Source: Escherichia coli (GTDB lineage Bacteria; Pseudomonadota; Gammaproteobacteria; Enterobacterales; Enterobacteriaceae). From it: DNA of 64,000 nt. The stretch is from assembly GCF_003790525.1 (NCBI RefSeq), contig NZ_CP033635.1. One strand, given 5' to 3'. The notes under the pieces are model-generated. The model did not search any database. It saw only the letters and a program-made list of their open reading frames with translations, and was not told the DNA's origin. Every line of letters starts with the position of its first letter. Positions within the stretch are counted from its first letter, which is position 1. This document shows positions 20,603 through 22,007 of this stretch, piece after piece. The translations under genes were made by a program, and so were the position numbers.

Positions 20603-20741
20603 ATTTCCACTTTCATGTAGCACAGTGTGCAGTCCTGCTCGTTTGCTGATTCCGCAAGACTGCCTGTTCTGCTATGATTGCCTTTATCCGTGGGCAATTT
20701 TCCACCCCCATTTCAATAAGTTTCAAGAGGTTATTTCACTC

Positions 20742-21272
20742 ATGGCTATCACTGGCATCTTTTTCGGCAGCGACACCGGTAATACCGAAAATATCGCAAA
20801 AATGATTCAAAAACAGCTTGGTAAAGACGTTGCCGATGTCCATGACATTGCAAAAAGCAGCAAAGAAGATCTGGAAGCATATGACATTCTGCTGCTGGGC
20901 ATCCCAACCTGGTATTACGGCGAAGCGCAGTGTGACTGGGATGACTTCTTCCCGACTCTCGAAGAGATTGATTTTAATGGTAAACTGGTTGCGCTGTTTG
21001 GTTGTGGCGACCAGGAAGATTACGCAGAATACTTCTGCGATGCATTGGGCACCATCCGCGACATCATTGAACCGCGCGGCGCAACTATCGTTGGTCACTG
21101 GCCAACCGCGGGCTACCACTTCGAAGCGTCAAAAGGTCTGGCTGATGATGACCACTTTGTCGGTCTGGCTATCGACGAAGATCGTCAGCCGGAACTGACC
21201 GCTGAACGTGTAGAAAAATGGGTTAAACAAATTTCTGAAGAGCTGCATCTCGACGAAATTCTCAATGCCTGA
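20742..21272 (+). CDS. fldA: Flavodoxin 1
   Basis: 176 aa from [16 protein letters not shown]; flavodoxin FMN-binding signature. Confidence 0.95.
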
Positions 21273-21278
21273 TGTGAT

Positions 21279-21310
21279 GCGGCGTAGACTCATGTCTACG
21301 CCGTATTAAT
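21279..21310 (+). terminator. fldA terminator hairpin
   Basis: GCGGCGTAGAC-tcat-GTCTACGCCG followed by TATT. Confidence 0.55.
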
Positions 21311-21477
21311 AGATAATGCCAATCAAAATAATTGCTACAAATTTGTAACTTTTGCTGTTGTACCTGTACAATGTCCCGGTGTTCAAGTGGCCTTGCCGTT
21401 GTAAATGTAAGCTGTGCCACGTTTTTATTAACAATATTTGCCAGGGACTTGTGGTTTTCATTTAGGCGTGGCAATTC

Positions 21478-21496
21478 TATAATGATACGCATTATC
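21478..21496 (+). promoter_or_regulatory. Fur-box-like operator at the fur/uof promoter
   Basis: TATAATGATACGCATTATC matches 16/19 of the Fur consensus GATAATGATAATCATTATC; overlaps the uof ATG, so promoter geometry is unresolved. Confidence 0.5.
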
Positions 21497-21568
21497 TCAA
21501 GAGCAAATTCTGTCACTTCTTCTAATGAAGTGAACCGCTTAGTAACAGGACAGATTCCGCATGACTGA
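21482..21568 (+). CDS. uof: Uof, 28-aa upstream ORF translationally coupled to fur
   Basis: ATG ATA CGC... encodes MIRIISRANSVTSSNEVNRLVTGQIPHD; stop overlaps fur start region. Confidence 0.7.
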   Translation: MIRIISRANSVTSSNEVNRLVTGQIPHD

Positions 21569-22007
21569 TAACAATACCGCCCTAAAGAAAGCTGGCCTGA
21601 AAGTAACGCTTCCTCGTTTAAAAATCCTGGAAGTTCTTCAGGAGCCGGACAACCATCACGTCAGTGCGGAAGATTTATACAAACGTCTGATCGATATGGG
21701 TGAAGAAATTGGTCTGGCTACGGTATATCGCGTACTGAACCAGTTTGACGACGCTGGTATCGTCACCCGCCACAATTTTGAAGGCGGTAAATCCGTATTT
21801 GAACTGACACAGCAACATCACCACGATCACCTGATCTGCCTCGACTGCGGCAAGGTAATCGAATTTAGTGATGATTCCATCGAAGCGCGTCAGCGTGAAA
21901 TTGCCGCAAAACATGGCATTCGCCTGACTAACCACAGTCTCTATCTTTACGGTCACTGTGCCGAAGGCGATTGCCGCGAAGATGAGCACGCGCACGAAGG
22001 CAAATAA
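21561..22007 (+). CDS. fur: Ferric uptake regulator Fur
   Basis: 148 aa MTDNNTALKKAGLKVTLPRLKILEVL...; HHHDH and CxxC metal sites. Confidence 0.95.
   Translation: MTDNNTALKKAGLKVTLPRLKILEVLQEPDNHHVSAEDLYKRLIDMGEEIGLATVYRVLNQFDDAGIVTRHNFEGGKSVFELTQQHHHDHLICLDCGKVIEFSDDSIEARQREIAAKHGIRLTNHSLYLYGHCAEGDCREDEHAHEGK

Follow-up and report, generated by a model that had tools for sequence, protein, structure and literature searches.

Gene order and annotated features of the fur locus

The window analysed here, i.e. the whole stretch of 64,000 nucleotides of Escherichia coli DNA (NCBI RefSeq assembly GCF_003790525.1, contig NZ_CP033635.1), carries the gene order ybfF-ybfE-fldA-uof-fur-chiQ-chiP, with fldA ending at 21272. 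All positions given below are those of the window unless a genome coordinate is indicated. The two overlapping genes at the centre of the analysis are:

21482..21568, plus strand: uof, 28-codon leader ORF with its stop codon TGA at 21566-21568 (ORF list, RefSeq, NCBIfam)
21561..22007, plus strand: fur coding sequence (RefSeq; NF006999, 309 bits)

The uof ORF, MIRIISRANSVTSSNEVNRLVTGQIPHD, consists of 28 codons plus TGA, ends at 21568 and overlaps fur by 8 nt (ATGACTGA, 21561-21568). RefSeq annotates exactly these positions in E. coli as "fur leader peptide" (b4637), and the peptide scores 85.2 bits against NCBIfam NF011344 (fur leader peptide; cut-off 71). As a minor point, both frames other than that of fur are closed by ATGACTGA, which has TGA at +2..+4 and at +6..+8 of the fur start; this follows from the N-terminus of Fur being M-T-D.

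A 401-base query centred on the region discussed below, around the Fur box, matches 5,424 of 5,426 complete genomes; identity is at least 99% in 5,409 records and 100% in the best-matching E. coli genomes listed. Since the window is identical to MG1655 in this region, published MG1655 coordinates can be transferred to it.

A Fur box on the proximal fur promoter

A Fur box, a promoter, a mapped transcription start and a published Fur footprint all fall at or next to the beginning of uof:

21478..21496, unstranded: Fur box (fur autoregulatory operator), 19 bp (consensus scan and dyad; within the published Fur footprint)
21455..21460, plus strand: -35 element TTTTCA (proximal promoter of fur), spaced 17 bp from the -10 (hexamer scan and conservation)
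21478..21483, plus strand: -10 element TATAAT (proximal promoter of fur), ending with the first two bases of the uof ATG (hexamer scan and conservation)
21491, plus strand: primary transcription start site (TSS; A) of the fur-only mRNA (SMRT-Cappable-seq TSS 710716 from cap-enriched full-length reads, mapped to the window)
21470..21499, unstranded: Fur DNase I footprint from the literature (Chen 2007 coordinates mapped to the window)

The sequence TATAATGATACGCATTATC at 21478-21496 of the plus strand agrees with the Fur consensus GATAATGATAATCATTATC at 16 of 19 positions (3 mismatches). It is the sole match with at most 3 mismatches on both strands of the 64-kb window, for which the chance expectation is 0.01, and just 1 of 100 dinucleotide-preserving shuffles contained any match of this quality. 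The dyad is formed by ATAATG (21479-84) and CATTAT (21490-95), with the arms 5 nt apart, and the uof ATG (21482-21484) occupies positions 5-7 of the box. A preliminary description of this DNA had pointed to a Fur-box-like palindrome lying across the start codon of uof, and this was borne out in every detail, namely the 16/19 match, the ATG inside the palindrome and the overlap between uof and fur. The Fur box at 21478-21496 is the already known fur autoregulatory site of E. coli, and in this respect the finding is of low interest. Beyond the Fur consensus, the box region is also conserved at the GA-ACGCATT positions, a pattern which suggests additional constraints, imposed either by the region of the start site or by the RNA.

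The box opens with TATAAT (21478-83), and these six bases form the -10 hexamer of the proximal promoter of fur, which is the best sigma-70-like site in the region (TTTTCA-17-TATAAT, 21455-21483, 10/12). The uof ATG is made up of the last two bases of this hexamer and the next G, so that a promoter using TATAAT must start transcription downstream of the ATG. The arrangement had previously been regarded as impossible to resolve from sequence alone. It is in fact largely readable: TATAAT is the -10 and TTTTCA stands exactly 17 bp upstream, a geometry that is deeply conserved.

Full-length transcript mapping by SMRT-Cappable-seq (PMC6131387, Suppl. Data 2) lists an operon of b0683 (fur) alone, with its TSS at 710716 on the reverse strand. 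In the window this start falls at 21491, which is 8 nt past the last base of the -10 and 9 nt past the A of the uof ATG, at the first base of uof codon 4. The resulting fur-only mRNA has a 70-nt leader from which the uof start codon is absent, and the Fur box, covering both the -10 and the TSS, reaches +6 of this transcript. Two RNAs were also detected on northern blots by Sinha et al. 2018 (PMC6191717), one of them, uof-fur, originating from Puof upstream of uof and the other, fur, from Pfur inside the uof ORF.

At the fur promoter, the DNase I footprint of Fur extends over NC_000913.2 709931-709960 (de Lorenzo 1988, tabulated by Chen et al. 2007, PMC2189734 Table 3). It was mapped with an offset of +777 from NC_000913.2 to NC_000913.3, after which the fepB and entC footprints land on their own Fur boxes. 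So placed, the footprint equals the Fur box plus 8 and 3 bp and runs from -21 to +9 relative to the 21491 start. Start mapping for fur and Fur footprinting, both proposed earlier as checks, are thus already published; instead of a start well upstream and an unprotected site, they give a start at 21491 and protection at 21470-21499 that includes the box. The fur site is among the weakest footprinted Fur sites, with 12.3 bits (PMC2189734).

As to the response to iron, uof-region RNA was 3.8-fold lower with iron than without it in a Fur+ strain (log2FC -1.92; PMC10219339, Table S1), which is consistent with exclusion of RNA polymerase by Fur at the proximal promoter. The fur CDS is absent from the table of differentially expressed genes (with and without iron) that lists uof, and the Fur ChIP peak table of this one study assigns no peak to either uof or fur (PMC10219339).

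Upstream promoters, read-through and the expression of uof

Three further features upstream of the proximal promoter bear on the question of which RNAs may carry the uof start codon:

21343..21372, plus strand: distal promoter TTGTAA-18-TACAAT, probable Puof (hexamer scan and conservation; predicted start at about 21379-21381)
21311..21347, unstranded: probable OxyR site ATAGATaatgcCAAT-N7-ATTGCTacaaaTTTG (sequence inference together with the stated OxyR control of fur; strongly conserved block)
21277..21310, plus strand: fldA terminator hairpin and mapped RNA 3' ends at 21308 and 21310 (SMRT-Cappable-seq TTS 710899; Term-seq 710897)

Both hexamers of the second promoter-like site, at 21343-21372, are more than 90% conserved across 81 loci, and the site is predicted to be the only fur-proximal promoter whose RNA would include the uof ATG. 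A start site for it is absent from the SMRT-Cappable-seq list (PMC6131387), the Cappable-seq 2016 list contains nothing for this region, and the literature that could be consulted yielded no mapped coordinate for the distal (Puof) TSS. The probable OxyR site adjoins the distal -35. The most conserved non-coding block upstream of fur is 21325-21352 (AAATAATTGCTACAAATTTGTAACTTTT), which overlaps the distal -35 and the OxyR-like half-site array.

Longer transcripts enter the region from the preceding genes. SMRT-Cappable-seq (PMC6131387) reports a fldA-uof-fur operon from 711521 (20686 in the window) and a ybfE-fldA-uof-fur operon from 711951 (20256 in the window). According to the same data, 2 of 57 reads from the fldA TSS pass the terminator at 21308, and Term-seq places the fldA 3' end at 21310 (710897) with an intrinsic terminator score of 19.7. 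The hairpin itself, GGCGTAGAC/GTCTACGCC, is without a clear T-run and is left uncalled by a simple terminator scan, yet two datasets place an RNA 3' end there.

The uof start codon is thus contained in the mapped fldA-uof-fur and ybfE-fldA-uof-fur RNAs and in the uof-fur RNA seen on northern blots, and it is absent from the fur-only RNA. The preliminary description had put forward two alternatives: either the box sits inside the transcribed leader, acting as a roadblock or as context for RyhB targeting, or uof is translated only from upstream read-through transcripts. With the TSS 9 nt past the uof A, the latter stands, except that the sources of upstream transcripts also include the distal promoter. 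The former applies to the long, upstream-started RNAs only and fails for the fur-only RNA from 21491, and its roadblock part found no support.

As a roadblock, Fur bound at 21470-21499 would stop polymerases that had started upstream and would thereby control the long, uof-containing RNAs too, an effect added to promoter occlusion and not replacing it. The box is suitably placed, about 100 nt past the predicted distal start and within both operon transcripts that start at 20686 and 20256. However, the operator is weak (12.3 bits), and the long uof-fur RNA appears on northern blots of LB cultures, whether mock-treated or treated with the iron chelator dipyridyl (PMC6191717). No RNA 3' end is found at 710700-710799 (21408-21507 in the window) in curated Term-seq lists, which is weak evidence as these lists are thresholded, and the literature consulted contained no report of a roadblock at the fur box. 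We consider such a role of Fur unlikely.

By comparison, it is highly probable that the Fur box is a promoter-occluding operator acting on the proximal sigma-70 promoter of fur, and that uof is found only on RNAs started upstream. In this scheme, Fe2+-Fur covering -21 to +9 would exclude RNA polymerase from the proximal promoter, resulting in autorepression. The short fur mRNA with its 70-nt leader would be unable to encode uof, its start site being located downstream of the ATG. We infer that uof is translated only from long RNAs, which would originate either from the distal promoter at about 21343-21372, probably activated by OxyR, or from rare fldA/ybfE read-through. On these long RNAs, the box would be part of the transcribed leader and would supply the initiation region of uof.

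Both -10 elements upstream of fur are followed by G, i.e. TACAATG at 21367-21373 and TATAATG at 21478-21484, which creates two ATGs in the same frame, and this frame is open from 21332 to 21568. An RNA reading through from fldA could encode an extended uof of 65 amino acids.

Comparison of fur loci across Enterobacterales

For the comparative analysis we used 80 fur loci from Enterobacterales species. In about 74 of 78 loci, among them those of Pantoea, Erwinia, Dickeya, Pectobacterium, Hafnia and Edwardsiella, TATAAT is accompanied by a TTyyCA-type -35 exactly 17 bp away. Across the loci, this proximal promoter keeps its spacer at a fixed length, whereas the spacer sequence drifts. The most conserved blocks upstream of fur are the -35 and -10 elements of both promoters together with the fur ribosome-binding region; the uof interior is among the least conserved.

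The fate of the ORF that begins with the embedded ATG differs between species. Of the 80 species, 36 have it end at a uof-type overlap with fur; in 24 others, among them Salmonella arizonae, Klebsiella, Raoultella, Atlantibacter and Pantoea, the stop lies 16-74 nt ahead of fur. In 7 species it runs in another frame and ends at ATGA, in 4 it is in frame with fur, and in 1 the stop is lost. The ATG is absent though the promoter is kept in 5 species, and TATAAT is missing altogether in 3. The motif TATAATGA is kept even where the ORF starting from its ATG comprises 4-20 codons or lies in the other frame, and the promoter persists without the ATG, as TATAATTGAGAC, in Dickeya, Pectobacterium and Trabulsiella. 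Intact uof shows no codon periodicity, the entropy at codon positions 1/2/3 being 0.42/0.33/0.45 as against 0.03/0.02/0.72 for fur of the same genomes. Judged by these alignments, uof is not conserved like a coding gene, which would be expected if only the act of translation matters.

Some individual loci depart from the E. coli arrangement in their own way. In four loci of the Buttiauxella/Dryocola type (L055, L056, L058 and L061), the ATG of TATAATG lies about 66-69 nt upstream, in frame with fur and with no stop in between; if long RNAs were translated from this ATG, Fur would acquire an N-terminal extension of 22-23 amino acids. The uof stop is lost in Enterobacter asburiae (L044; ACAGAC in place of ACTGAC), where the ORF, in a different frame from fur, extends 49 codons into this gene.

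The match to the Fur consensus is 16/19 in Escherichia, several Citrobacter and Salmonella arizonae, 12-15 in most of the remaining Enterobacteriaceae and, at the background level, about 10 in Erwiniaceae, although the latter have kept the promoter. Autoregulation via the Fur box may therefore be limited to Enterobacteriaceae. The background values in Erwiniaceae would also fit a mere chance resemblance, whereby an AT-rich -10 region happens to resemble a Fur box without playing any part in regulation. Consistent with such a coincidence are the lack of an assigned ChIP peak in one dataset and the fact that 7 of the 16 matches come from TATAATGA and could be supplied by the promoter itself. However, 9 of the 11 remaining positions match as well in E. 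coli, uof-region RNA is repressed by iron, and Fur protects exactly this stretch in vitro, so that a chance resemblance is contradicted by the published footprint. It is almost certainly not the explanation.

If the box is instead taken as an operator of the proximal promoter, the comparison across species suggests an order of events. The promoter appears to be the oldest and strongest constraint, with the Fur box superimposed on it in Enterobacteriaceae. In turn, the ORF of uof appears to be a younger and looser feature, using an ATG that the promoter happens to supply.

RyhB pairing, folding and 3' ends of the leader RNA

On the RNA level, the leader contains the following features:

21483..21506, plus strand: best predicted bipartite RyhB pairing (windowed duplex scan; weak, about -12.5 kcal/mol)
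21539..21568, plus strand: small invariant hairpin around the fur Shine-Dalgarno sequence (GGA 21548-50) and start codon (alifold, 23 sequences)
21562..21562, plus strand: abundant RNA 3' end, located on the U in the AUG of fur (Term-seq 710645(-), 137,086 and 180,817 reads)

In the predicted RyhB duplex, UGAUAC (21483-88) pairs with RyhB 60-65 and GAGCAA (21501-06) with RyhB 42-47. The latter segment includes G44 and C45, the RyhB residues needed for uof/fur repression (PMC6191717). The sites from the windowed scan were all weak (-12 to -14 kcal/mol) and in several cases lay upstream of the proximal TSS, and the RyhB-complementary stretch is poorly conserved across Enterobacterales loci. By a published report, the published model of the RyhB-uof interaction is recovered by no computational tool. 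When full-length RyhB was folded with the entire leader, the resulting duplexes had very long loops and were unrealistic, and this approach was discarded. A RyhB pairing model as the basis of interpretation was likewise set aside, since the predicted duplexes are weak and the published interaction is computationally unpredictable. In the experiments of Sinha 2018 (PMC6191717), the short RNA was lowered by RyhB and the long one was not, an outcome that is unpredicted by a pure model in which RyhB blocks the initiation of uof.

Neither the short nor the long leader folded better than shuffled sequence (z = +0.28 and -0.22), and a search of 21200-21700 against Rfam returned no family even at E <= 1. 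The hairpin at the Shine-Dalgarno sequence and initiation codon of fur has the uof stop in its 3' arm; its pairs are kept, without covariation, in the 23 sequences. Such a predicted structure fits the idea of coupling between uof and fur. Vecerek, Moll and Blasi are said to have tested the translation of uof and fur in 2007, with uof reportedly being translated, coupled to fur and repressed by RyhB. Another small hairpin, ACUUC/GAAGU at 21515-21531, is invariant in 23 Enterobacteriaceae sequences and lies within the otherwise variable body of uof.

The RNA 3' end at 21562 is represented by 137,086 and 180,817 Term-seq reads, compared with 47,785 at the fldA terminator, and its scores fit neither Rho-dependent nor intrinsic termination. 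Combined with the TSS at 21491, this 3' end implies a fragment of the leader about 72 nt in length. A fragment that carries the Shine-Dalgarno sequence of fur together with its start codon accumulates in a pcnB mutant, which is without poly(A) polymerase, and was judged RyhB-independent by the authors.

It may be asked whether the sequence of the box is kept mainly as the initiation region of uof and as part of the RyhB target, its likeness to a Fur box being secondary. The start codon does lie within the box, the dyad of which, as RNA, folds into a hairpin of 6 bp that contains the AUG; UGAUAC and GAGCAA are the segments paired in the best windowed RyhB duplex; and reviews state that RyhB blocks uof initiation. 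However, it is the -35 at a fixed distance of 17 bp that is conserved together with the TATAAT of the box, and the motif persists where the ORF has 4 codons, is frame-shifted or is without the ATG. Furthermore, uof is without codon periodicity, the RyhB-complementary stretch is poorly conserved, the duplexes are weak and the leader folds no better than shuffled sequence. Finally, transcription from the main TSS (21491) leaves the first 13 bases of the box out of the RNA. Taken as the main reason for the conservation of the box, a role in the RNA seems unlikely to us.

Relation to known systems and implications

The Fur box is the very same site as the E. coli fur autoregulatory operator (de Lorenzo, Herrero, Giovannini, Neilands 1988; included in the Fur model of Chen et al. 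2007, PMC2189734), with no difference from the K-12 operator, the window being 100% identical here. Classical Fur operators such as those of iucA, fepA-fes, cir, tonB and fecA are alike in that a 19-bp dyad lies over the -10 and the start, with repression by exclusion of RNA polymerase (PMC2189734). The fur operator differs from them in being weaker (12.3 bits as against 17-23 for most) and in carrying a start codon used only by RNAs initiated upstream.

With respect to the leader ORF, the system described for uof-fur coupling and RyhB control (Vecerek, Moll, Blasi 2007) involves the same ORF (b4637), the same overlap with the fur start and the same RyhB residues G44/C45. That model concerns RNAs containing the uof AUG, whereas the fur-only mRNA from 21491 lacks it. 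There is also a likeness to other leader-peptide ORFs targeted by small RNAs, such as thrL with GcvB, where translation of a short upstream ORF sets downstream expression and the small RNA acts on the leader. Unlike in that type, the uof start is buried in the -10 of an internal promoter, and in consequence leader-less isoforms exist side by side with leader-containing ones.

The operator, the leader ORF, the promoters and the link to a small RNA are all already published and annotated. What the present analysis clarifies is that the start codon of uof is part of the Fur-controlled -10, so that the commonly mapped fur mRNA cannot encode uof. The reach of the textbook model of uof coupling and RyhB control is limited by this uof-less fur mRNA. 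It also lines up observations that are still unreconciled: RyhB acts on the short and not on the long RNA, iron affects the leader RNA and not the fur CDS, and an RNA 3' end is located at the fur AUG. Together, these leader observations leave some room for a reading in terms of an isoform switch or a leader fragment, which we regard as improbable.

In such a reading, Fur occupancy would itself act as the isoform switch. At low iron, the uof-less fur mRNA would be produced; with Fur on its operator, what is left of fur expression would come from uof-containing RNAs made from OxyR-/SoxS-dependent upstream promoters. Coupling through uof, the block by RyhB and iron-responsive decoding would then be limited to a stress-induced minority of transcripts. 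What limits the short isoform would be RyhB-dependent decay or else processing at the AUG of fur, the latter giving rise to an abundant, iron-responsive fragment of about 72 nt (21491-21562). With its RyhB-complementary GAGCAA, this fragment could titrate RyhB. We offer this scenario as a speculation that is rather unlikely to hold.

The short mRNA also keeps an in-frame GUG at 21530. This codon would open a 12-codon ORF extending to the uof stop (21530-21568) and is without an obvious Shine-Dalgarno sequence.
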